A stretch of DNA of 62,943 nucleotides, counting the filler, from Collodictyon triciliatum (Eukaryota), in assembly GCA_043381765.1 (NCBI GenBank). It is 4 parts of 4 records of this genome, joined end to end, with 100 filler letters (N's around TTAATTAATTAA, not from the genome) between each part and the next. Parts side by side here need not be neighbours in the genome. Positions count along the whole stretch, not along the records: positions 48,271 to 62,943 come from JBHJMP010001487.1; 3 more parts are not named here. One strand, written 5' to 3'. The notes below the pieces were generated by a model, which had not been told where the DNA came from, searched no databases, and saw nothing but the letters and a program-made list of their open reading frames with translations. The translations under genes and the position numbers were made by a program. Shown here in pieces: positions 983 to 62,943 of this stretch (position 1 is the first letter of the stretch; each line of letters opens with the position of its first letter).

Positions 983-3900
983 TTAGTTCTCGTACAGTGT
1001 GGAGTGAATTTTGCAAACCCATCGGAACCGGCCAGAATGGATGGTATAGAAGTTGAGCTGGTTGCCAAAGGTCAGCTCCGGCGACTCGAGGTAGTGGCGG
1101 ATGTCACATTCGACCCCGGACTGCAGCTGCGGTGGAACCGGCTCGTGCTCGTGGTCTTTGTCAAGCATCGCCTGGTAGTCCCTGATGGACTCTATCTTTC
1201 GTAATCGAAACAGTCGTTTCAAGTCCATGTGTTCGTCTCCATCGTCGTCGAAATCTGCGTTTGACTGAAGAGTAAACTCAAAAGCATATCCGGCCATCGC
1301 AAGAAGTCGGTGATAAAATATTTGACGAAATCCTTCCCAGTCACGAATGACGACGCCTTTCTCGGATATCACGTGCGGTCCGTTGGGTGCTTCGCACAGA
1401 AAATAGGCCTTCGCCTCTTTCTCCTCCATGAAGGCAATAAAGAGATTAGGCTGGTGTGCAACGATGCTAGCTTTTAGCTCCTGGGATTCTCCCACCGCCA
1501 GTGAGGTTCCTTGCAAGGCACATTTTTTGGTCATCGAGTGACCTCTGGGGCATTGGACTGTGTCCATATTCTGGTTTCCTTGCTTCAAGTCTGTGAAATT
1601 GAAATAGTGCGAAATATCCCCAGCAAAACTTTGGCACTGGGGGCAAACCACACCAATGTCCAGTGTAATTCCTGGATAGAGTCCATGGATGATAGAGAAT
1701 CCATCCATGAGGCGATTGAGCAGTACTGAGGCCTCTAGCTCGTCTGTGCTCATCTGGTTCCCAAATCTCACTCGAAAGACAACCATTTGTTTGTGTTTGA
1801 CAGAGTGAGCGCATATACTCAAAAGCGGATGACGCCTTTCTTTGCCAGTAATCTCGGGTAGCAAAGCAGATGTCACCAGAATAAAGTGTGTGGCACTGTA
1901 AAATAGTAAGCGCCCTTTGTTCCGGACAGAAAAATCCTGGAAAACCGCCACCAGACGAGAAAACAGTCCAGAAGGAAGAAACGAGTACTGAAAAGCAAAA
2001 GTGAATTCGCGTGTCCAATGAAATTCTGAAGGAAACTCCCAGTAGTCGGCCAGTGGCATTTGTGGCGAGAGCATCGTAGGAAAGGCCTCCATCACGGTGT
2101 CTACAGGAAAAGATAAAAAGAAGTGCCGAAGCATTTGGATTCTCCCGTCGATGTCTACTTCAACCTGTACAGATTGGGTTGAGGGTGACTGTAGAGAAGG
2201 GGAAGATAAAGAATTGGCAGGGGCGATTTGGGACACCAGTTCGTATGATGCCATCATATCGGGTATTTCGGACCGGACGATGGTATCTTGGAGGAGGACA
2301 TTTTTTTTCAAATGAAAGAGTAGAGGGAAAGAGTTGATTAGAGCCTTTGGGTCAAGTACCACTTGGTTTTTGATTTGTGAGCAGTTGCACCAGGTGATGG
2401 TTCCTTGGTCATGAAGGAAGCCCAAAATTTTTTCCATTTCATCTTCTTTGATTTCCATGTTGGACGCGGCGCGGTGGAATTCTTCGATACGGGCGAGGGG
2501 GGATACCCGTTGGCTTCTCCATTCAGCGATTAGATCTGATACGAGTAGATACTTGTATGGCAACTCGCTATTGATGAAAGGCATGGAGAGAGCAACATCA
2601 GCGAGGCAGCGCTTCAGATCTTCGATTCCATCTCCAGACTTGCTACTTGTGCGAAAGAAGGTAGGGTGAATGGTCAGGGTGTTTTCGAAGGGAGCGATGG
2701 ACTGCTTTACGTCTGGAATATGCCTATCCGGGGCTGCATAAATGAGAGAAGAATCTGAACAAGTCCCCACGATGACCACACGGCACTTTGGAGCGATGCT
2801 TCGGATTAAATTAAGCCAACGGTCGATCATACTTTCACTGGCTTTGACTTGCATGTTCCACGTCAATACAACGAGAGAACCGGGAGTCAGAAAGATTGGG
2901 ATGCATGGGGATGTGCCTTCTGTTCCAGGGAAGTCCCAGATGTCTAGAGAGAGCAGAGTCCTGTCTGAGGAGTACGCCTCCAGCGGGGTGTCTGCAATAT
3001 CGATGCTTGTGGATGGAGCGATGGACTCATCCAAGGAGCTGTACCAAAAGAGCAGGTATTTTTTCAGCAGCGACCTAACCAGGGTGGTTTTGCCGGACCC
3101 TGAGGGCCCGAGGATGAGGACGCGAGACTTTAGATGCATTTCCTTGAGCGGGTTCTGTTCTTTTAGATAGTTTCTGAGAGATGGGACGCCCTCTCGAATG
3201 TACTTCCACGGAGGGTACCTGATGGGGTTTCCGTCGACATCGAGGATGTTGAGTTTGCGCATCCTTGCAATCGTGTTTGGGAGGGTTGCTATGCGGTTGT
3301 TTGCCAGATGGAGCTCCTCCAGGTCGATGTTTCTGTCGATGGAGTTTGGGATGGCGGTGATTGCGTTGTTTGAGGCGGTGAAGAACTGGAGGTGGGGGAA
3401 CTTTGCAAAGGCCTCCGGGAGGGAGGAGATTCTGTTGCTGTCGAGGCGCAGGTCGCGGAGGGAGACGAGGCAGAAGAAGCTGTCGGGGAGACTGTGGAGG
3501 TTGTTTTCGGAGAGGTGGAGACTCCGGAGCGTGGTGAGCTTGCCGATGGACTCGGGCAGGTGGTTGATGGGGTTGCAGGAGAGGTGCAGGACCTTGATGG
3601 CGACGAGGCAGCCGATGGAGATGGGGAGCGAGGCGAGGCGGTTGTGGTGGGCGTGGAGGAGCTGGAGGGCGGAGAGGGCGGAGATGGAGGCGGGCAGGGC
3701 CGTCAGGCAGTTGTGGGCCAGGTAGAGCTCCTGCAGCTGCGCGGCGAGCTGGATCTGGGGCGGGATGGCGGCCAGCTGGTTGTGCGTGAGGATCAGGACG
3801 CGCAGGGCGCACCAGGGCTGCAGCTCGGTCGGCAGCACAGACAGCCTGTTGTTGCTGAGGACGAGATAGCGCAGCCTGCCCAGCCGCAGGAAGGACAGCG

Positions 3901-4378
3901 GCAGCCGCGGAAGAGCCGCCCCGTCCAGCCACATCTCCTCGTACAGCTCCAGCTCCGCCTCCGCCCGCCCCGTCAGCTCCGCCAGCCACTCCAGCGTCTG
4001 GTCGAACCGCTTCCCCGGGTTTGCGCTCGTCCGCGTCCTCCCGGCGCTCCCTGTCTCTGCCGCAAAGGGCGCCCCGTCAGAGACCGGCACCGGCGAGAAC
4101 GACGCGGTGCGCGGGCGCGGCAGGGCGGGTTCGGCGGCGGGGCTGCTCGGCGGGTTCGGCAGCGTCGGGCGGCGGATCAGGGCGGGGGCGGGGGCGGGGG
4201 CAGAGGTCGTTGCAGAAGCAGAAGCAGAGGCAGAGGCAGAGGCAGAGGCAGAGGCAGAGGCGTCGAAGGCAAAGTGCAGCGTCCCGTGGGTCGTCGCAGG
4301 CGCGCCGGGCAGCAGGAAGGACGGCCGCTCCGGTGATGTCGACGGCGACGGCGTCCTTGGCGTTGGGGGCGAGCTCAT
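983..4378 (-). CDS. Roco-family protein (LRR-ROC-COR, no kinase domain), 1131 aa, intronless
   Basis: About 11-12 LRRs of the LxLxxNxLxxLP type, then NPIRYPP, P-loop GPSGSGKTT, DIWDFPG (G3), VIVGTCSD (G4), TSSKSGDGIEDL (G5), COR motifs LGFLHDQGTI and VVLDP, FLPSGLFSRL, and a C-terminal CPQC..CPRGH / WVCKIH region. Confidence 0.9.
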   Translation of the reverse strand: MSSPPTPRTPSPSTSPERPSFLLPGAPATTHGTLHFAFDASASASASASASASASATTSAPAPAPALIRRPTLPNPPSSPAAEPALPRPRTASFSPVPVSDGAPFAAETGSAGRTRTSANPGKRFDQTLEWLAELTGRAEAELELYEEMWLDGAALPRLPLSFLRLGRLRYLVLSNNRLSVLPTELQPWCALRVLILTHNQLAAIPPQIQLAAQLQELYLAHNCLTALPASISALSALQLLHAHHNRLASLPISIGCLVAIKVLHLSCNPINHLPESIGKLTTLRSLHLSENNLHSLPDSFFCLVSLRDLRLDSNRISSLPEAFAKFPHLQFFTASNNAITAIPNSIDRNIDLEELHLANNRIATLPNTIARMRKLNILDVDGNPIRYPPWKYIREGVPSLRNYLKEQNPLKEMHLKSRVLILGPSGSGKTTLVRSLLKKYLLFWYSSLDESIAPSTSIDIADTPLEAYSSDRTLLSLDIWDFPGTEGTSPCIPIFLTPGSLVVLTWNMQVKASESMIDRWLNLIRSIAPKCRVVIVGTCSDSSLIYAAPDRHIPDVKQSIAPFENTLTIHPTFFRTSSKSGDGIEDLKRCLADVALSMPFINSELPYKYLLVSDLIAEWRSQRVSPLARIEEFHRAASNMEIKEDEMEKILGFLHDQGTITWCNCSQIKNQVVLDPKALINSFPLLFHLKKNVLLQDTIVRSEIPDMMASYELVSQIAPANSLSSPSLQSPSTQSVQVEVDIDGRIQMLRHFFLSFPVDTVMEAFPTMLSPQMPLADYWEFPSEFHWTREFTFAFQYSFLPSGLFSRLVAVFQDFSVRNKGRLLFYSATHFILVTSALLPEITGKERRHPLLSICAHSVKHKQMVVFRVRFGNQMSTDELEASVLLNRLMDGFSIIHGLYPGITLDIGVVCPQCQSFAGDISHYFNFTDLKQGNQNMDTVQCPRGHSMTKKCALQGTSLAVGESQELKASIVAHQPNLFIAFMEEKEAKAYFLCEAPNGPHVISEKGVVIRDWEGFRQIFYHRLLAMAGYAFEFTLQSNADFDDDGDEHMDLKRLFRLRKIESIRDYQAMLDKDHEHEPVPPQLQSGVECDIRHYLESPELTFGNQLNFYTIHSGRFRWVCKIHSTLYEN

Positions 4379-4808
4379 TGGGCTGTGCTGTGCTGCAGTG
4401 GGTCTCGTCAGCTGCGCTCTGGTGGAGAGAAGAGGATGGAGAGAGGAGAGAAGAGAGTGGAGAAGAGAGCGGAGAAGAGGGTGCTTGGGTGATCGTCCGT
4501 GCGGCAGGTCGTGGCTGCATGATTGTTTGAACCAGGCGAGGGGGGCTTTTTGGCAGGTTGTTTGGGTTTGCCATCACTTAACCGTTTCTGGATTTTATAG
4601 CAATCTGTGGTGGCAACAAGCGGGCTTATTTATGCACCGCCCCGCTTTGGCGTGGGGTGGGAGAGAGTTAAAGAGCGGAGAGCGGCCGGAGAGCGGCAGT
4701 TAGTTTCTTTTGTTTTTCGGGCAGGGCAGACTAAGGGGAAGGTTGGCTTTATCCCATCGGAAAATTGGGTGGGTTCCATTAACGGCTGTTATCTGTCGGG
4801 TGTGCACG

Positions 4809-29918: not shown

Positions 29919-32421
29919 ATGAATCGGTACAAAGTGACCAAGCAACTGGGGGACGGGACTTTTGGGTCGGTAACAAAAGGAACGAATAAGCAAACAGGAG
30001 AGACGGTTCGAGATTTAGTTTGATAACTCATTTGTAGCCGTCAATCTACCTTGTTTTCCTAACGGGCGAATATCGTACAGGTTGCCATTAAAAAAATGAA
30101 AAGGAAATTCTACAATTGGCAAGAATGTGTGGAGCTTCGGGAAGTGAAGGTTGAAGACTATGTTGCATAACATATTTGATAGTTTGGTATCTGATTTCTC
30201 CTCATTCCATCGCAGACCTACAAACCACCATTTACACATGCAATTGGTAATCCCTTTCTATGCCTTTAATATTTTCATCTTAATTAATACAGTCTCTGCG
30301 CAAGTTGAACCACCCAAACATCATAAAGCTCAAAGAGGTTATCAGAGAAAACGACGAGCTCTTTTTTGTATTTGAATTTATGGACCACAACCTGTACCAG
30401 CTTACCAAAGACAGAGAAAAACTTCTTCCTGAGTCCAAGATAAAGTCTCTGATGTGGGTTTGGTTGAACACATCTGATTCCCCAATCATGACTCATTATG
30501 TTTGTCGCTTGGTGAGAAATGAATCAGTGTGTACTTAGCTCCTATGTTTGTTTGAGAAGTTTAATAAAATTCAAAATATGCAGGTATCAGCAACTGAATG
30601 GAATCGCATATATGCACAAGCATGGCTTCTTCCACAGAGATATCAAGCCAGAAAACATGCTAATCAGTAAGGATATTGTCAAGGTGGCCGACTTTGGTTT
30701 GGCCAGGGAAATCCGCTCTAGACCACCGTACACAGATTACATATCGACGCGATGGTGAAACTTCTACCTCCCTGATAATTTTGATTCTCATTAGACTCGT
30801 ATACCATAGTGTTTTTTTTTTATAATTTTTTACATGATAGCTTAGTTATCAGAAGGGGCATGTTTATTTAATGTCATGAGCCATACTTTCAACACATATT
30901 TCCTTATACTTTATTTTCTTCCATCAAATTTACCGCATCGTCGACATTCAACCAGACTAATCAAAAATGTCCATCTGAAATACCACTAGATTCTAATGTA
31001 TTGCATCGATGTAATAAAAAAAAAATTTTTTTTTGATGAATCACCATGACAGGTATCGCGCACCCGAGGTTGTCCTACGCTCGACCTACTACAATAGCCC
31101 TATCGACATATGGGCACTCGGGGCAATCATGGCTGAGCTGTATATGCTGCGGCCTCTTTTCCCTGGGAACAGCGAGACTGATCAACTGTACAAAATATGC
31201 TCTGTTCTTGGCCCACCAACACAACAAACATGGCCGGAAGGTCTTCGACTTGCAGGGGTGATGAACTTTCGCTTCCCTCAGGTACTTTCATACTCCCCTC
31301 TGCAAAACCGCGGTTCGTTCAGAAATAGGCGATTGTATTCATAAATCTATATTATTGTGAGCAACATGTCGTACGAGACGTTTACTTTTTTCTTTCTATG
31401 TTTACTTTCTCTCTTTCACTTTCATCTTTCATCTTTCATCTTTCATCTTTCTCTTTCTCTTTCTCTTTCTCTTTCTCTTTCTCTTTCTCTTTCTCTTTCT
31501 CTTTCTCTTTCTCTTTCTCTTTCTCTTTCTCTTTCTCTTTCTCTTTTCCCTACCTGATGATAGACCTGGCATATCTGAAAATTTCTCAAAAAAACTCCCA
31601 TGCTTACTACCGCAGTGCGCACCTGTCCCACTCTCGACATTGATTCCCAATGCATCACCCGACGCCATCCAGCTGATGACAGAGATGCTTCGATACGACC
31701 CGAATAAGCGCCCCACCGCCGCTCAATGTCTGCAACATCCATATTTCACTGGAGTTCAGCTGCCCCCCGGCCTCACCGCATCTGCCGGTGACGGTGCAGG
31801 TGCTTTGGAGCCGGCGGAGGACCGCGAAGGCTCGCATCTGCCATCCCTCGGGAAAAAAGATGAATCCGCGCCGAAACAGAATCCGCTATCGTCGGGCTCC
31901 AGTTCTGTTCAGAAAGGTGGTCGCTTCTTTCCTGCGCTATCACCAGGCGGGCCGATGTTCAACAGGTTGCTGTATCAATTGTATGATATTTTTTTTGCGG
32001 ACGCCCGTGTGTTCATTGCAGAAATGTGGGGCGTGACTGCTGCGTGCCTCCTGTTGAATGTCAGAACTTCATGACTTCGACGTCCATCTTTACATTTTTT
32101 TTCTTATTCCTTTTCTTTTTCGTCTTTCACATAGCGCACCGGAGCAAGATTTGATGGCCAAGCAACCTGCGGTGAAGTCGGCGATGGGTGTGTCGCTACC
32201 ATCCATCAACCGAGCACAGACATTTGCGCAGCCAACTCAATGGGGTGTTCAGTAAGTCTCGTGTTTCTCTCTTATTTCTACCTGCAAATCAAAGAAAAAA
32301 ACATACACTTGCTTTTCAAGAGTCTGCCATGCTGTGGATAACGTCCCATATTTACCACTGAATGAGGCCGCTTTTGCTTACCTGGCGTAGATATGATGCA
32401 TTTGGCCGACGTAAATACTAG
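29919..32421 (+). CDS. MAK/ICK (RCK family) protein kinase, ciliary-length-regulator type
   Basis: [81 protein letters not shown] (TDY activation loop). Confidence 0.95.
31445..31545. repeat. (TTCTCT)n microsatellite, MAK intron
   Basis: Seen directly. Confidence 0.95.
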
Positions 32422-39273: not shown

Positions 39274-46276
<7,003 letters not shown>

Positions 46277-55445: not shown

Positions 55446-57365
55446 TCAATCCGTTGGCCAATCTTCCGTATTGAGTCGATAGGGGGACAGAGCAAGATTC
55501 AAAGCCATGAGAATTGCAAATGAGTATTGAAGGATAATAGCAGGCTTGAGATTATATTTCCAAGACCTTGACACAGCAACCTCAATACCATACAAATAAC
55601 TTTCGAGAGACATATACGCAACTTGTGTGACTAATTCTATGGGGAGCTGTATCAATATGCTAACAAACATTTGGCGAATCGATGTGAATGTTTGGAATGT
55701 AACATACGCTTGGATGGGCTCGAAAAGGAACAAAATAATGGGCAGAAAAATGGTTAGCTGAATGTCGGTCATGGATATCAAGTACGACCGATTAGAACGG
55801 TAAGTTAGAAGAAAGCGGGTCATCTCGTCCTCTTTGTTGAGCTCTGCAAAAAGCTTGCGAATGCCTGCCATACTCAGATCAACTTCATGCAATTCTTGAG
55901 ATTCCACTGGCACACCGTTTTCGATTTCATGACTCTGATGATTGTGCTGATTGTGTTGATTCTGTGATTGACTCTGGCATAGGTTATGAACTTTCCTGGG
56001 CGAGAAGCAAGCAAACCATTTCTTTTTCCTTATGCGATTCATGAGTTTGAATGTGTAAATCGTTCTCGGCGCGACCGTGCCTTGGAGAACAACATCAAAA
56101 ATACCCGAGGAAATGGCCATCAGCGCCGTATTCTTCATACTACCTGAGCTTGATACCATGAATCGAAGGATAAACGCCGATGTCGAGTTCATGATGTTCC
56201 CTGTGACCATCCGGTATTTAGCGTATTCCTTCGATTTATAAATGATAAGGTTATTCATATAAGAGTCTGCAATACTGAAAAGGAAAGGAACTATGATGAT
56301 TCTACCAATAATCCTGATTGTAATGCTTGAGCCCATGATAAATGGTATGATAAAAACAGTGAGGGTGAAATAGGGTATGACAAAAACAATAAAGCCTTTG
56401 AATATTGTCGAGGGTGTCCCGTCACCAGAGAGTGTTTCATACCGAGCGTTTCTCTCCCAATTGCTATCTTTATTGCCGCCCTGCTTCATCTCTGTATTAA
56501 TTTTGCTCGACAAAGGTATACATCTCTGCAAAAGATACATGTTCAACAGAAAAATCCCGTAGTTCACCAAGGACATCGTAGGGAGCATATACACCTCTCT
56601 GATGACGAACGTAGCCATATTTATCAGACAGCACGGAATCGTGATCTTGTAAATAAGATGCCAAACTCGCTCTTTTCCAAAGAGGTACAGACAGGTCAGA
56701 GCCACAGTGGCATACATCGAAGCCATAAAGAAACACGTCGATATAAGAAAATGAATCAGCACATTTTCGTAGTTGATTTCAAAAAGCCATGAAGATCCAA
56801 ATATAACGGAGGAGACGACCAGGGGTGTAATATCCAAAAGAGAAGAATGATAAATCAGCCACACGACATTCTGGACAGCATATTTGAGTGACTTGGAAAA
56901 GCTCGGGGCGTTCTTTGGCCGAATAAAAGATGCTTCGTGGTTGAAACTCCTGTCTTGTTTTCTAATGCTCTTGATTCTCCAAGCGTGCTTGTTTACCGGT
57001 GCGTTTTTGTGCTCGTGGCGATGGTGGTGTTTTCGGATTTCTTCGTCACCCACCAGCTCCGCAGGGCCAGTATTCTGGGCCTCTTGAGATTGGTGGATAC
57101 ACGAACCGCTTGCTGTCTGTGCTTCATCTTCGATTATATCCACACAGTCGCCTAATTGCGCAACCTTTTCTTCATTACTGGAGCCAGAGTCACCTTCATG
57201 CGCATATTTGCGATCTACAACAACACGGCTGCTTGCTTGTTTGCTGTCTTGGCGTGCTTTTTGCTGTCTATGCTCATACTTGTCGAACCTGACCTGTTGA
57301 CCTGTCCGTCCGTTGTCGATAGCTGCTGCGTCGAAATCGGCTGCAAAACTTCCGGCCGCTTGCAT
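55446..57365 (-). CDS. Intronless multi-pass membrane protein of unknown function (about 640 aa)
   Basis: Single long ORF with a hydrophilic N-terminal ~165 aa, then roughly 10-11 hydrophobic helices and a Gln/His-rich loop. The first ATG is at 57365. Confidence 0.75.
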   Translation of the reverse strand: MQAAGSFAADFDAAAIDNGRTGQQVRFDKYEHRQQKARQDSKQASSRVVVDRKYAHEGDSGSSNEEKVAQLGDCVDIIEDEAQTASGSCIHQSQEAQNTGPAELVGDEEIRKHHHRHEHKNAPVNKHAWRIKSIRKQDRSFNHEASFIRPKNAPSFSKSLKYAVQNVVWLIYHSSLLDITPLVVSSVIFGSSWLFEINYENVLIHFLISTCFFMASMYATVALTCLYLFGKERVWHLIYKITIPCCLINMATFVIREVYMLPTMSLVNYGIFLLNMYLLQRCIPLSSKINTEMKQGGNKDSNWERNARYETLSGDGTPSTIFKGFIVFVIPYFTLTVFIIPFIMGSSITIRIIGRIIIVPFLFSIADSYMNNLIIYKSKEYAKYRMVTGNIMNSTSAFILRFMVSSSGSMKNTALMAISSGIFDVVLQGTVAPRTIYTFKLMNRIRKKKWFACFSPRKVHNLCQSQSQNQHNQHNHQSHEIENGVPVESQELHEVDLSMAGIRKLFAELNKEDEMTRFLLTYRSNRSYLISMTDIQLTIFLPIILFLFEPIQAYVTFQTFTSIRQMFVSILIQLPIELVTQVAYMSLESYLYGIEVAVSRSWKYNLKPAIILQYSFAILMALNLALSPYRLNTEDWPTD

Positions 57366-57849
57366 TATGTTGGCCACTTTCCTTTTCTACTCTGCTTCCT
57401 CCTCCCCTTCTCTTTTTCTTTCTTTCGTGCGCCGCACCCTGGCTCAACCGCCTATATTCAGTTTTGTGGTGAGTCAAGGGAGTCAGCACTACCGCAGCTG
57501 CGGCCAGTTCGACCCACAAACAGTCGCAAGCCATCCAAGTGACGCTGTTTTGAAAACCCATTGAAAGAAATATAATGGAAAAGCGGTGAAGAAAAGAATG
57601 AGAGGAACGGGGCTCAAGAGAAGAAAAAAACATCTGATTCCCGTTTGGAGATGCACAGGAAGGTTTTGCTTCTCGTTTAGAAGGAAAAATGCCTCGTTTA
57701 GGTTTGTCTTTATTTGGCATAAAATGCGATGAAAACGCGTTTTGTTGGAAAGGCTGCTACATATTTGGTATCAAGTGTCAAAACGCCAGGATTCTGGTGC
57801 TTTGTTTGCCCCAAAACTGCCTTCTAGATGCATCTATTTTTTAATCCAC

Positions 57850-58055
57850 TATAATAAAATATAATAAAATAATAGAATAGAATATAATAGAATAGAATAT
57901 AATAGAATAGAATAGAATAGAATATAATAGAATATAATAGAACAAAACAAAACAAAACAAAAACAAAAAAACAAAAAAACAAAAAAAACAAAAAACAAAA
58001 AAACAAAAAAACAAAAAAACAAAAAAACAAAAAAACAAAAAAAACAAAAAACAAA
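57850..58055. repeat. A-rich compound microsatellite (AATAG / CAAAA) just upstream of the Ctk3-EYA start
   Basis: Seen directly. Confidence 0.92.
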
Positions 58056-58084
58056 GACGTAACTCTTCACATAAGCAGAGCAGG

Positions 58085-59268
58085 ATGAACATTTTTGAAG
58101 CTTGTCGCACTTTCGGATCCCTGCTCGGCTGTCTCGACCATCCAAAGAAGCTCAAATCGGTGGCGAAACTTGCGACTTCGTATGTCGATCTTGTGGGAGA
58201 GTTTACTGACACGTTCCAAGAGAAGATGCAGGAGGTTTGTCTGACCCCATCTCTCGCGAGACATTTATTTATTCATTCATTCATTTATATTTTTCTTTTG
58301 GTTTTATCGATGCCGTTGGCTTCATATATGGTTTATACGGCCTCGTAGTGCATAGATGTTTTTATATAGTCTATGCGCCTTCTTTTTTTCTTTTATTTGT
58401 GCTTCTTGTTCACGAGGTGTCTGACTCTTCTGAGAACTAAAAACTTTGAGTATACTTCTTTATTTGAAATCATTTGCATCTAATATTTGAATGGAAGCTT
58501 CCTCGAGCCTTATAATCATGCCGATAGAGCCAACTTTTAATTATCTATTTACCATATTACTACCATCATGCATCTATCTAACTTAATTTTAAACATTTCC
58601 AGTTTGCCTTATTTTTTTTTAAAAAAAAATCTCGTCTGTATTTTCACCACAGAACTGTTCTTGGATTATGTTCTTTCGCAATCCGCGGATATCAGCACCG
58701 TAATCAGTTTTTGGTATAATACAGGTTGCGCCAGAACAGCGCGGATTGATGATGTATGCTGTGGATGCAATATGTCTGCCAAAGGCTGGAGAGGCGTGCA
58801 AGGAATATATGGCAACATTCCTGCCGCTGCTTCCCGAATTCGTCAAACTGTCAGCCGAGAATTCAGAATCAGCACGCATGAGCAACAGAGTAAGTGTTTG
58901 AAGAGATAGAGAGAAATCATATTGGCACCGTCAAAATCAAGAAAAAAATTTTTGGTTTCGATATCATAATCATTTTAAATGCATGAAGTTTGCTATCTTT
59001 TGATTTCTTTATTAATAATGTGCATCATTCTACTTGAGGCAATCGGCTGGTGGAGAAAGAGGCGTTGCTTTTCTGAAGAATTATTGGATGAATTGCAGAG
59101 AACGATCAATATGGAATCGGACAAATCAGAGTACACAATTGCCAACAATCTCTATATATTGTAAATGTGAATCTATCTGCTACATTTTTGCAATTGAATT
59201 CCTTATTCAAATTACTATATATTATTATTGTTATGATTATTATTATTATGATTATGATTATTATTATG

Positions 59269-59354
<86 letters not shown>

Positions 59355-61744
59355 GATTTACACTGCTGAAAGCTCTACAACATCGTGGCATGATTTGTTT
59401 ATTCGGCCTGAAAACGAAGGAGACCACATGATTGATACATCGACGCACACAGACGAAACTATGTTAGTGAGCGAAAATAGAAATATACGCCCTTATTATT
59501 TGCGTCCTTTGTTATTTACGCAAAATGCTAGAGAAAAAGCGGAAAATAATCATGAAGATTATTTTTCGTATGAGTGCATTAGGGTCTGATTAAAGTGTTA
59601 AAATTTTGAGTGAATATGTTTTCAGAAAGTCGTCATCACCTAAGCTACCACGAGAAAGGGAAGTTGATCACAGAGAAAACGAACGGCGTGCCATTTTTTC
59701 ATTTATGGATGAATTTCATCAAACAGTGAGACCTACCTTTTTCTCTTTCCCTCATTATTTTCCCTATTGTTAACCATTTTGTTATTTTTTCTTTACAAAC
59801 ATCAAGAATGGGCTTACTCTTTATTCTTTTTTTCTCCTTGTAGCGAAAGGCTCTTATATTTCATTTATTAAACAATCTATAAGAAGGTTATATGCTTTTT
59901 TTTAGCAAAAAAGAAGAAGATTGGAGGCCTGTCTAAGACCAGAAAACGAAGATGAAGAGCACGAATTCAACGAGCATTATTTCAGTGCGCTGCGAGATCA
60001 CCTCGGTGAAAAAGCAGACCAAGTTATTCGAAACATTTTGAAGCTAAATGAACCTGACGTGGTAAATATTTATCACTGAACAAAAATAAATAAATAATTT
60101 TTTTTGGGAAGAAGTCATGGATGGATTGCTACATTTGTGGGTGCACATTTTTTTATTTGTTTCTATTCTTTTTTGTAATTGTCGGACCCGAAAGTCCTTA
60201 AAATAGGACTTGGTATTGTAAGATTTGTGGCGTACTATTTCCAAAGTATTTGTCGACTTTTTTCACCGCCTAGGAAATTCCATCTAATCACGCCAGTGGT
60301 CATCCAAAGAAAGTTTTCATATGGGATTTGGATGAAACTTTAATCGTTTTTCAATCACTGCTGCCAGAAAAAGGTTATCGACCTGGAGCAAATCAGGAAA
60401 ATCCTGCGCTCGAGCATCAAAAATTCACCTTGTATCAGATGGAGAATCTTGTCTATGATATTTGTGATGATTACTTTCATTATAGAAAAGTAGAAAATAT
60501 TCCCATCACCAAGATTACAAATAATCAAATGAAAGAGGGAAATACCTTAAAGTACATATTTTGTTACATTCCTCACATTTCGTTCTCTCCACTGAATTAT
60601 ATAGATCTCCTTGCTTGAGAAAAGTACCAGATAAACAAGAAGAAACAAAAGAAATCATTCATACTACTTTATATTAGAATTGATGAAATCCCAGCCCTGG
60701 ATCCAAGCGATTCGAAATGTGCCGAGCTACTATCTGTCATGTAACCTCATTAAAAATATCCTGTTCTTTTTCTTTTTGATGTTTTTTTAACTGTTTCTGT
60801 TCAAAATAACCACTACCGCTCCATCATAGATTAGAAGAGGTGGCACGTACTTTTCTGAGTGTAATGATTATTTATATAATTCATAATTTACTTATCTTTG
60901 CATGACACGCATTTATTAATTAAATTCATATCACATGTAAACGCGTGATGAATGAAGTATCGGTCAGCTATTCCTGAAAAACTCCTACGGGATGGTGAGA
61001 AGCTTCTTTCTGCTATTGACAAAATCACGGATGGGTGGATTCAAACTTCTGATCAAATACTCCGTCAACTAAAAGAGAGGTTTGTACAATATTAGAAAAT
61101 CATGCTCAGAAAAGCCCCTTTAAAATGTCATATCAACCATCTGTGTTCAAAAAAAAGTGCACTACATGCTATTCGTTTTATTTCAGGTATGACTGTCATT
61201 TTGTCATCGTTTCGAAGGCGCTTCTCATTCCCACACTATCCAAGCTGATCCTTTTTGGCTTGGCTGATTTCTTTGCTATTGATATGGTCTACTCATCTGC
61301 TTCATCAAGTATTGTTTTAATTGTTTTTTTATATTTACGTTTTATTATGTGTTGACTTTTTTTGCTTTCTGTTATCATCATTATCATTATCATTTTTTAT
61401 AATATTGTCATGTGTTTGCATTTTATGAATATCTTTACTTGCAAATTTATGGTTTAGGTAAAGAAGAGTGCTTTCGTGATGTCATGAGTCGTTTCGGAGA
61501 TAGCGAGTATTATGCCATAGGTGATGGGGCTGAAGAAAAAGAGGCTGCGACCCAGGTTTCTATTTAAAAATTTTCGATTTCTTACAGGATTGTAACTATG
61601 GCGATACTTTTTTTCAGCGCTGACTAGTGAATCATTGGGTAAAAGGTGAAAATTCCATTCATGCCAATCCACAAGGGCGACCATCTTCTCGCCATTTTTG
61701 AATGGTCCGCTCGCAATTACTCAGATCTACAAGAGAGCGGGTGA
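58085..61744 (+). CDS. Fusion protein: Ctk3-like (CID-fold + CTK3_C) N-half and Eyes-absent (EYA) HAD phosphatase C-half
   Basis: Phase-consistent exons 58085-58234, 58725-58889, 59039-~59130, ~59372-59462, 59626-59725, 59906-60061, 60274-..., 61646-61744. EYA motifs: KVFIWDLDETLIVFQSLL, MENLVYDICDDYF, ITDGWI, LIPTLSKLILFGLADFFAIDMVYSS, GKEECF...SRFG, YAIGDGAEEKEAA, IPFMPI. Confidence 0.85.
59220..59357. repeat. (ATT)n microsatellite, Ctk3-EYA intron
   Basis: Seen directly. Confidence 0.95.
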
Positions 61745-61759
61745 AGAAATCGACATAGC

Positions 61760-62450
61760 CAGAATAAAGTCATAATCTCGATGCACAGCTCTGTTGGAGA
61801 TATTGAGCTGAATGGTGCGATGTTTCGAAAGTAGCTGGAACATGCAGGGTTGCTTCCAGCTTTTGACTATCGACGGTTCTATAATGCCTATAGTTTCGGC
61901 CCATCGACTCATTTTCTCCCGGTTTTTAGGGATTCGGACTGATGATTTTATATCGAAACAGCTTGGAATATACCATGGCCATCGAGAATTGGTTTGCCAA
62001 GTGCAATTGCTTTCTATCAATTGCATGGTGTTCCGTCATCGCGTGCGGCACATCAGAATAAAAAAAAAAATATTGAAAGGCGATGCGTCAATTGCACCTT
62101 TTTAACCACCGAGACTACGGAATAAAAGCGAAAAAAAAACACGGTGTACATACCCGGTAATTGTAATGAGAAAACTCTCAAACTGATTTGATGGAGTCGA
62201 GCCAGACGAGTTTGCAAAGTAAAATTCGTTTGTCATCGCCACACACAACAGCCTGTGAACATAAAGCAAGAACCGCCGTGGGAAAAGGGTACACGGTTGA
62301 TTCTTTAGTTTTTTAAGCAATAGCCATGTATGTCCAAAAAACATATTCAACCATCTCTTATAAAACCTGTGTGTGTCTTGTGATGGACTGCTTCTGATGT
62401 TGGGTAAAACGAAGCCATGACATCCCTTTCCGGGATTTTAGACACATTTT
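61760..62450 (-). mobile_element. Second decayed copy of the L1/Tx1-like element, antisense, just 3' of the EYA gene
   Basis: Minus-strand NQFSMAMVYSKLFRYKIISPNP aligns with TQFSMVMAYSKFFRYKISPPTP at about 36280-36345. Downstream LNISNR matches LNITNR. Upstream PERGCHGFVLPNI resembles the post-RT GGLGLPNI motif. Confidence 0.65.
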
Positions 62451-62819
62451 CTCAGAACATCGGCAGTATCCTTTGGAAAACAAAGTCCAACTCACCCCGC
62501 CCATTTATTCATTAATTCGTTTAATTTTTGTTTTGTTTGTTTTGTTTGTTTTGTTTGTTTTGGCATTCCAGCGAGTCGCTGAACACGGCAAAGAACAGAA
62601 AGAGTCACAGAGACGTGACAGACACAGGAGGCAACGCTACAAGAGCTGTTGGCCCGTCTGAAGCTCTCTGCTCACTTTACTTTCAGTCCAACGAAGTAGA
62701 TCGAGTCTCCTCTTCCTGGCTGTTGCGTCGGAAGCGGCGGTGATATCCCCGATTGAAAAGGACCAAAGTTTCCGGAAGATGATCGTCCAGAATTCCCGCT
62801 CATTGTTTTTTTTTTATTT

Positions 62820-62943
62820 TCTGTTTTTGTTTTATGTTTTATGTTTTATGTTTTATGTTTTATGTTTTATGTTTTATGTTTTATGTTTTATGTTTTATGT
62901 TTTATGTTTTATGTTTTATGTTTTATGTTTTATGTTTTATGTT
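62820..62943. repeat. (TTTTATG)n tandem repeat at the window end
   Basis: Seen directly. Confidence 0.95.

Follow-up and report, generated by a model that had tools for sequence, protein, structure and literature searches.

Can a subunit of a kinase that acts on RNA polymerase II (Pol II) and a phosphatase be built into one polypeptide? The question is raised by a locus of Collodictyon triciliatum (assembly GCA_043381765.1) at positions 58085-61744 (+) of the 62,943-nt stretch of DNA analysed here (the window). A first-pass annotation had read this locus as a fusion of a module like Ctk3, the gamma subunit of the C-terminal domain (CTD) kinase CTDK-I, with an Eyes absent (EYA) phosphatase. 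The locus yields a single open reading frame (ORF) of 521 aa (1566-nt coding sequence) from a 13-exon GT-AG model, opening with ATG at 58085 and closing with TGA at 61742-61744; the start, the stop and all peptide strings quoted in that annotation are present in the spliced model. We favour, with a probability of roughly 0.7, the reading that this is one gene whose product would combine an N-terminal CTD-interacting domain (CID) fold of Ctk3 lineage (approximately aa 1-130), a CTK3_C-like motif (approximately aa 193-225) and an EYA phosphatase (aa 252-521), and would dock to the Pol II machinery.

Relatives that carry both halves on one chain provide the first line of evidence. A phmmer search with exon 7 against 1.84 billion representative sequences gave 45 matches at E <= 1e-3. 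The best of these, P0001, is 54% identical within the exon and begins with MMIYAIDAICLPK, corresponding to the sequence of window exon 2; it is N-truncated and runs unbroken from this exon 2-like start into the EYA domain. Its cluster consists of Trinity transcript ORFs of Diphylleia rotans, the full-length member being P0048 (509 aa). A single BLASTP high-scoring segment pair aligns residues 1-515 of the model with residues 5-509 of P0048 at 41% identity (E 4.8e-146), across every exon boundary and including exons 4 and 9. Residues 58-515 align with P0001 (E 1.9e-115) and residues 49-507 with P0003 (E 2.9e-36), and all three alignments cross the residue 251/252 junction between the two halves. 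A word-index search of a protein collection with exon 7 and exon 2 gave no match; the window's own protein is evidently absent from that collection.

The same architecture was sought in other organisms and found in Diphylleia, Protostelium, Endogone, Ichthyophonus and the P0003 cluster; judged by these predicted proteins, the Ctk3-like/EYA fusion is not unique to C. triciliatum. The fused proteins comprise, besides those of Diphylleia, a Protostelium nocturnum transcript (P0034, 617 aa), proteins from contigs of ~1.7 kb (P0003 and P0050-P0053), a protein of Endogone sp. (P0068, 922 aa) and a gene model of Ichthyophonus hoferi that ends just past WDLDET (P0079, 1029 aa). The source names of P0001, P0048 and P0034 mark them as Trinity transcript ORFs, and P0068 is called 'CTD kinase subunit gamma CTK3-domain-containing protein' at NCBI, so that its CTK3 half is already exposed in automatic database naming. 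Set against Pfam gathering scores of 23.9 bits for CID (PF04818), 23.7 for CTK3 (PF12243) and 25 for CTK3_C (PF12350), P0068 scored 125.6 for CTK3, 55.8 for CID and 58.9 for CTK3_C; P0003 scored 48.9, 38.1 and 20.5, the last below the cut-off; P0034 scored 41.7 for CTK3 and 62.5 for CID; and P0079 scored 53.3 for CTK3 and 40.4 for CID. CTK3_C was passed by P0068 only, P0053 (22.0 bits) also falling short, and a CTK3_C-like motif is conserved in all fused proteins. For the EYA domain, P0001, P0003, P0034, P0048, P0068 and P0079 each match TIGR01658, P0003 (220.7 bits) above the curated cut-off of 195.3 and P0048 (130.2), P0034 (154) and P0068 (163.2) below it; P0079 covers the EYA start only, and P0053 carries motifs I and IV.

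The CID/CTK3 module was present in three of the ten long EYA relatives of one scan (P0001, P0003, P0034) and in four of the nine of a second (P0068, P0079, P0048, P0053). The animal, green-lineage and Paulinella EYAs that were scanned are without it, Paulinella P0035 having PF16622. Relative to P0003, P0053 contains an in-frame hydrophobic insert that resembles a translated retained intron, and the Diphylleia cluster includes shorter isoforms of 140, 407 and 410 aa (P0046, P0047, P0049), which stop within the EYA domain. Genes of this fused family may often be spliced incompletely or give alternative isoforms.

Turning to the N-terminal half, exons 1, 2, 3, 5 and 6 were scanned one by one against Pfam (exon 4 not included; the exon 3 stretch extended to 59158) and gave 0 families, and a phmmer search of the PDB with exon 2 gave no match at E <= 10. 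We therefore describe this half through its relatives. A hidden Markov model (HMM) was built from the N-terminal parts of P0003, P0034, P0068 and P0079, all four of which pass Pfam CTK3, with Diphylleia left out. The window's N-terminal half matched it over positions 7-225 at 63.9 bits (E 1.4e-19), 200 shuffles reaching at most 11.1. The first-pass annotation, which had called this half Ctk3-like or CID-like and named a profile match as the test, is supported in this way. Its proposed CTK3_C-like motif is likewise supported: the stretch FMDEFHQT plus QKRRRLEACLRPENEDEEHEFNEHYF scored 24.7 bits against a home-made motif HMM from four fused proteins (best of 1000 shuffles, 10.4), and the stretch (QKRRRLE..LRPE...EF) coincides with the region of P0068 that matches PF12350.

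An alignment of six fused proteins (A2) allowed comparison with solved structures. The A2 profile matched the 'non-canonical CID of Ctk3' (5ce7_A) at 5.2e-22 and 81.5 bits, against at most 39.9 bits for the CIDs of RPRD2, SCAF8, RPRD1A/B, Rtt103, Pcf11 and Nrd1, and EYA3 and EYA2 at ~1e-62; Pol II CTD-related CIDs were the sole structure matches of its N-terminal part. On the AlphaFold2 model of P0048 (mean pLDDT, the predicted local distance difference test score, 65.7), seven helices occupy residues 7-134 with block pLDDT mostly 73-87. Foldseek aligned this model to the CIDs of RPRD1A (4jxt_A; template-modelling score, TM, 0.85; root-mean-square deviation 1.8), RPRD2 (4flb, 0.89) and Ctk3 (5ce7, 0.81), target-normalised TM-scores to solved CIDs ranging over 0.78-0.89. 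The predicted CID fold and the homology of the window's N-terminal half to CTK3-positive fused proteins are established by these comparisons.

The C-terminal half is assigned to EYA. Motif I reads FIWDLDETLIV, with DLDET at aa 269-273; for motif II, VIVSKALLIPTLSK in the window aligns via P0048 with VLVTTTQLIPALAK of EYA2; and for motif III, SSKEECF aligns with KTGKESCF. With GDGAEE as motif IV, motifs I-IV of the EYA domain are all present (DLDET, Ser, Lys, GDGAEE), and the catalytic motifs are intact, as had been claimed from the first reading. Three of the five EYA exons matched TIGR01658 when scored singly (exon 7, 9.8e-12; exon 11, 1.4e-6; exon 12, 1.5e-5) at 45.2, 28.3 and 24.9 bits; in the exon-by-exon Pfam scan, exon 7 gave only a chance match to BpsA_C. 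The best solved-structure matches of P0048 are EYA2 and EYA3, by sequence at 1.2e-29 (EYA3) and by fold at 4e-13 (EYA2). Residues 252-521 are, by homology, an EYA-type haloacid dehalogenase (HAD) phosphatase that is predicted to be catalytically complete.

Several observations weigh against the favoured reading, beginning with the lineage of the N-terminal domain. P0048, the nearest ortholog, clears the Pfam CID threshold (40.9 bits, residues 16-128) and misses that of CTK3 (17.3 bits), with no Pfam match to CTK3_C at E <= 0.01. Searched alone, it finds RPRD1A best for its N-terminal domain (E 0.0022), Ctk3 not being among its structure matches, and in the ESM Atlas the features of its N-terminal part fall with plain CID clusters in 23 of 30 matches. 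Foldseek and the ESM Atlas are unable to separate Ctk3 from canonical CIDs, and AlphaFold2 confidence is low over the CTK3_C-like helices of P0048 (blocks 41-64). For the branch formed by the window protein and Diphylleia, strict Pfam CTK3 membership would be putative at most, the nearest ortholog standing below the cut-off.

These properties of P0048, with its higher CID than CTK3 score and its closer fold to RPRD1A and RPRD2 than to Ctk3, would suit a protein that acts as a canonical phospho-CTD reader, its CID being of the RPRD/SCAF8 type and placing EYA on the Ser2-phosphorylated CTD without joining Ctk1-Ctk2; RPRD1A/B, to which such a protein may be likened, scaffold the CTD phosphatase RPAP2. 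All members of A2 keep the Tyr and Asp of the YxxD helix (Y65 and D68 of P0048), and the Arg before IGWW in exon 3, at the head of an (I/L)xxW motif, aligns via P0048 with the Arg of GRVLSIW in RPRD1A, which we take to contact phosphorylated Ser2. However, four members of A2 out of six have Lys at that position, the CTK3_C-like motif is kept in all fused proteins, with P0068 carrying CTK3_C itself beside CTK3, and the A2 profile favours Ctk3 over every canonical CID. As a replacement for a kinase-subunit role, we consider a purely CTD-reading protein unlikely, if the most serious of the alternatives. CTD reading and a kinase-subunit role are not mutually exclusive, and because of the invariant Tyr/Asp helix and the RPRD1A-aligned Arg, direct CTD reading stays a live rival or an added mode.

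The gene model itself was examined with contigs from three sequencing runs (X1, X2 and X3, from one study and presumably RNA) aligned to 57800-62100. X1 and X2 behave like cDNA from this or a very closely related organism, judging by their GT..AG joints, a loose poly(A) end and 21 loose non-genomic letters at the 5' side of one contig, presumably a cDNA library oligo; X3 had no contig aligned in this interval. Ten of the 12 introns are backed by GT..AG contig joints in X1 or X2. Intron 3 (59131-59372), which contains an (ATT)n run, is implied only by lengths in X1 record 1, where 92 + 90 letters fill record positions 324-505. The first-pass claim of a single stop-free ORF of GT-AG exons held, and the contig joints led to three changes in its exons: exon 3, which had run past 59130, ends there; the model had lacked the exons at 59373-59462 and at 60830-60860 (31 nt), both now added; and an alternative end of exon 8 was replaced by 60740. 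The resulting features are collected in Table 1. The exons have a GC content of 0.43, the introns 0.15-0.33 and the window 0.39; Rfam gave 0 matches over 57000-62943.

Table 1. Exons, junction intron and 3' end of the Ctk3-like/EYA gene, with predicted content and the evidence for their edges (positions in the window)
Feature	Positions	Strand	Residues	Predicted content	Edges and alignments
Exon 1	58085-58234	+	1-50	Start codon and first CID-fold helices	X1 record 1 spans 58077-58232 and joins 58723, cut possibly 2 nt on (58234/58725); aligns with P0048 residues 5-54
Exon 2	58725-58889	+	51-105	CID core with LMMYAVDAIC (Tyr/Asp helix)	Joints 58232>58723, 58889>59039
Exon 3	59039-59130	+	106-136	Final CID helices with NRAIGWWRKRRCF	Joint 58889>59039; donor GTACAC at 59131
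Exon 4	59373-59462	+	136-166	Linker	AG at 59371-59372; 5' edge implied by X1 record 1 lengths (90 letters on exon side of joint); joint 59462>59626; collinear with P0048
Exon 5	59626-59725	+	166-199	CTK3_C-like motif begins (FMDEFHQT, from 59705)	Joints 59462>59626, 59725>59906
Exon 6	59906-60061	+	200-251	Remaining CTK3_C-like motif (QKRRRLEACLRPENEDEEHEFNEHYF, 59906-59983) and linker	Joint 59725>59906; 3' edge from GTAAAT donor and collinearity with P0048
Intron 6	60062-60273	+		Fusion junction; GTAAATAT...CCTAG; 212 nt; GC 0.32	
Exon 7	60274-60551	+	252-344	EYA domain start; motif I DLDET at 60325-60339	Joint 60551>60678 (X2)
Exon 8	60678-60740	+	344-365	EYA cap region	Joints 60551>60678, 60740>60830 (X2 record 5)
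Exon 9	60830-60860	+	365-375	31-nt micro-exon	Joints 60740>60830 (X2), 60860>60958 (X1, X2)
Exon 10	60958-61079	+	376-416	EYA helical region (YRSAIPEKLL...DGWIQ)	Joints 60860>60958, 61077>61185 (cut possibly 2 nt further on); aligns with EYA2 and EYA3 via P0048
Exon 11	61187-61308	+	416-457	HAD motif II region (FVIVSKALLIPTLSKL)	Joints 61077>61185, 61308>61458
Exon 12	61458-61555	+	457-489	Motif III Lys (SSKEECF); motif IV GDGAEE at 61520-61537	Joints 61308>61458 (X2), 61553>61644 (X1, X2; cut possibly 2 nt further on)
Exon 13, coding part	61646-61744	+	490-521 and TGA	EYA C-terminus	Aligns with EYA C-terminus IPF..I
3' untranslated region	61745-61787	+		AATAAA at 61763-61768; poly(A) addition site at 61787	X2 record 7 extends to 61787, then a loose end of 23 A

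The joint on which the fusion depends, 60061|60274, runs from phase 0 to phase 0 (GTAAAT...CTAG), as the first-pass annotation had stated, and it is here that the remaining contrary observations lie. An RNA junction across intron 6 was looked for, and no contig of the three runs bridges it, 60073-60147 being without coverage. The sole contig at the exon 6 donor, X1 record 1 (827 nt, depth 18.8), carries exons 1-6 correctly spliced, keeps 11 exact intron letters to 60072 and then holds 55 letters unmatched to the window. Reading through intron 6 meets an in-frame stop at 60077-60079, 16 nt past the donor, and an AATAAA at 60085, 6 nt after the stop. On the other side, exon 7 is covered in X1 by one contig alone, record 2 at a depth of 5.9, which begins at 60148 inside intron 6.

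Taken at face value, these contigs would accord with a locus that gives two products, first a stand-alone 256-aa Ctk3-like protein that ends at this stop, with its mRNA polyadenylated past the AATAAA at 60085, and second either an EYA transcript of its own or a fused isoform of minor rank. The fusion would then be no more than an alternative isoform in this organism. Contig depth, a poor measure, is 18.8 for the 5' contig vs 5.9 to 12.9 for 3' contigs, and the shorter Diphylleia isoforms would also be in keeping with such an arrangement. However, X1 record 2 retains introns 7 and 8, both certainly spliced in X2 (record 5), and for this reason looks like pre-mRNA; unspliced molecules are common in the X1 run, and reading into intron 6 there therefore says little. 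The 55 letters after 60072 in record 1 are not to be taken for a 3' end, because they have no match to the window. Nor can the EYA half start alone, because its frame opens directly after TAG 60271-60273 with no in-frame ATG before DLDET, and a separate start inside intron 6 was rejected, the only ATGs there (60117 and 60121) yielding ORFs of 29 and 26 aa. Finally, the relatives with both domains are all single ORFs, three of them named transcript ORFs. We consider the two-product arrangement improbable.

The donor, acceptor, length and GC content of intron 6 resemble those of confirmed introns, and we infer the 60061>60274 splice from these features and from the relatives. It is very likely that the fused mRNA exists, a short intron-terminated isoform being possible alongside it. 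A 21-letter non-genomic loose end in an X2 contig stands directly before 60373, a point in exon 7 that lies downstream of the catalytic motif; it is read as library oligo at a truncated cDNA end, not as a true transcript start.

The last alternative, that the N-terminal half is a generic helical or CID-like extension with no role in transcription, lineage-specific in the manner of animal EYA N-termini, might draw on the empty single-exon Pfam scans and on the 7 of 10 and 5 of 9 scanned long EYA relatives that have neither CID nor CTK3, but it is largely refuted and very hard to credit, given an N-terminal half that is kept in very distant lineages, CID or CTK3 scores well above cut-offs in six fused relatives, the 63.9-bit match to the fused-relative HMM, and an A2 profile that matches only Pol II CTD-related CID structures in this region.

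With a Ctk3-lineage module joined to EYA as the favoured reading, a mechanism may be proposed. Through its Ctk3-like module, the protein would dock to the Pol II machinery during elongation. Our first choice for this docking is as third subunit of a Ctk1/CDK12-cyclin complex, which would be engaged through the CTK3_C-like motif, and direct CID-CTD contact may aid it. The EYA domain would then remove nearby phosphotyrosine, most plausibly Tyr1-P of the CTD heptad or, alternatively, a kinase tyrosine. The outcome would be Ser2 phosphorylation coupled with Tyr1 dephosphorylation. In two reports (PMC10746219; bioRxiv 10.1101/2024.10.14.618141), Ctk3 is described as binding Ctk1 and Ctk2 and activating Ctk1, the C-terminal part of yeast Ctk3 as holding Ctk1-Ctk2, and Ctk3 as having no human ortholog.

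The predicted protein can be compared with several known systems. With Ctk3/Lsg1 (CTDK-I gamma; PF12243 and PF12350; structure 5ce7, complex 7JV7) it shares a CID-fold N-terminal domain followed by a basic/acidic helical motif, M(D/E)(D/E)..R..KRRR.E...RP......EF, and fused relatives pass PF12243, P0068 passing PF12350 as well. It differs in ending in a complete EYA domain, and in a nearest ortholog below the PF12243 cut-off. Yeast Ctk3, to our knowledge, has no EYA domain. With animal EYA1-4, Drosophila Eyes absent and plant EYA (TIGR01658; 3geb, 4egc, 9n0y) it shares motifs I-IV, intact in the window. Its N-terminus would be a folded CID/Ctk3-like module, whereas the N-terminal transactivation region of animal EYAs is portrayed as poorly conserved and free of recognisable motifs, and plant EYAs as lacking an N-terminal domain, in PMC8069645 and PMC8286820.

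The canonical CIDs (RPRD1A/B, RPRD2, SCAF4/8, Pcf11, Rtt103, Nrd1; PF04818) resemble the module in fold, and P0048 passes PF04818; the Tyr/Asp helix and a basic residue before (I/L)xxW are kept in the fused proteins. In these systems, however, the phosphatase is a separate, serine-directed polypeptide, and none of the canonical CIDs encountered here carries a CTK3_C-like motif or an EYA domain. FCP1 and SCP1 are aspartate-based HAD (DxDxT) phosphatases on the Pol II CTD, and they are serine-specific; BRCT or other modules, not a CID, direct them to their target. They form a separate HAD subfamily and gave no sequence match in the structure searches with the A2 profile or P0048. CTD phosphatases are mentioned among HAD cap classes in PMC8069645.

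The gene lies in AT-rich, intron-bearing eukaryotic DNA. Its divergent upstream neighbour is a 646-aa uninterrupted, hydrophobic-rich frame with 0 Pfam families (55446-57386, -). Microsatellites occur just upstream of the start codon (57850-58060; (AATAG/AATAT)n and (CAAAAAA)n), in intron 3 (a long (ATT)n at 59216-59365) and near the window end (62520-62560 and 62830-62943; (TTTG)n and (TTTTATG)n). Just past the poly(A) site, at 61852-61991, X1 and X2 contigs pile up at a depth of 129-249, showing 5-12 differences and bearing long, dissimilar tails; this segment has no second copy in the window and no Rfam match. It could be a repeat of dispersed type, or belong to an abundant transcript of other origin. 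Farther off, 983-4573 (-) holds a 1196-aa open frame with leucine-rich repeats, Roc, COR-A and COR-B, a ROCO-type GTPase that is apparently intronless there. Exon-sized frames at 40871-43143 (+) and 31361-32074 (+), with glycosyl hydrolase family 2 matches and a protein kinase domain tail, are probably neighbouring spliced genes.

The first-pass annotation knew of no description of such a fusion, and this still stands: literature searches pairing EYA with Ctk3 or CID, with subscription papers and supplements outside their coverage, found none. Broader searches likewise showed none among the papers listed, their scope excluding supplements such as Table S1 of PMC10746219 (>400 fungal Ctk3 orthologs). 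The window gene appears to be a member of a Ctk3-like/EYA architecture that is without a description in the literature searched. In PMC8069645 and PMC8286820, the EYA N-terminal domain is said to resemble no known protein, and the origin of the combined activities is treated as open speculation. One of these two sources reports five fungal EYAs, with no identification of their N-terminal domain, and no protozoan EYA.

How old might the fusion be? An EYA-domain tree of 20 hand-picked rows out of ~80, those with a complete domain, left 10 of its 17 inner branches open, and the fused rows need three changes on it; its resolution is too low for dating the fusion, and a single origin is compatible with it. 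That CRuMs, Amoebozoa, Fungi and Holozoa each have fused forms suggests an old fusion. We tentatively consider that a Ctk3-EYA fusion was already present in the common ancestor of Amorphea and CRuMs, although we rate this below even odds, and that Dikarya kept only the Ctk3 half and animals only the EYA half. Present-day carriers of the ancestral form would be Diphylleia among CRuMs, Protostelium among Amoebozoa, Endogone among early fungi and Ichthyophonus among Holozoa. The dikaryan Ctk3 half would have become the third CTDK-I subunit, and animals would have swapped the Ctk3 module for a disordered transactivation region.

The finding extends EYA to protists of several supergroups. A Ctk3-type module and EYA on one chain would link two questions, that of Ctk3, which has no human counterpart, and that of the origin of EYA. 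It also leads to a hypothesis that can be tested: the Ser2-kinase machinery would deliver, or would once have delivered, EYA to the Pol II CTD to act there as a Tyr1 phosphatase. This would fit the raised CTD Tyr1 phosphorylation that, according to one report, followed inhibition of the EYA tyrosine phosphatase in human leukaemia cells (PMC12548103). If the ancestral fusion is real, EYA's first job would have been that of an integral Tyr1 phosphatase of the Ser2 CTD kinase complex, and the transcription-linked roles of animal EYA may be a remnant of that job.

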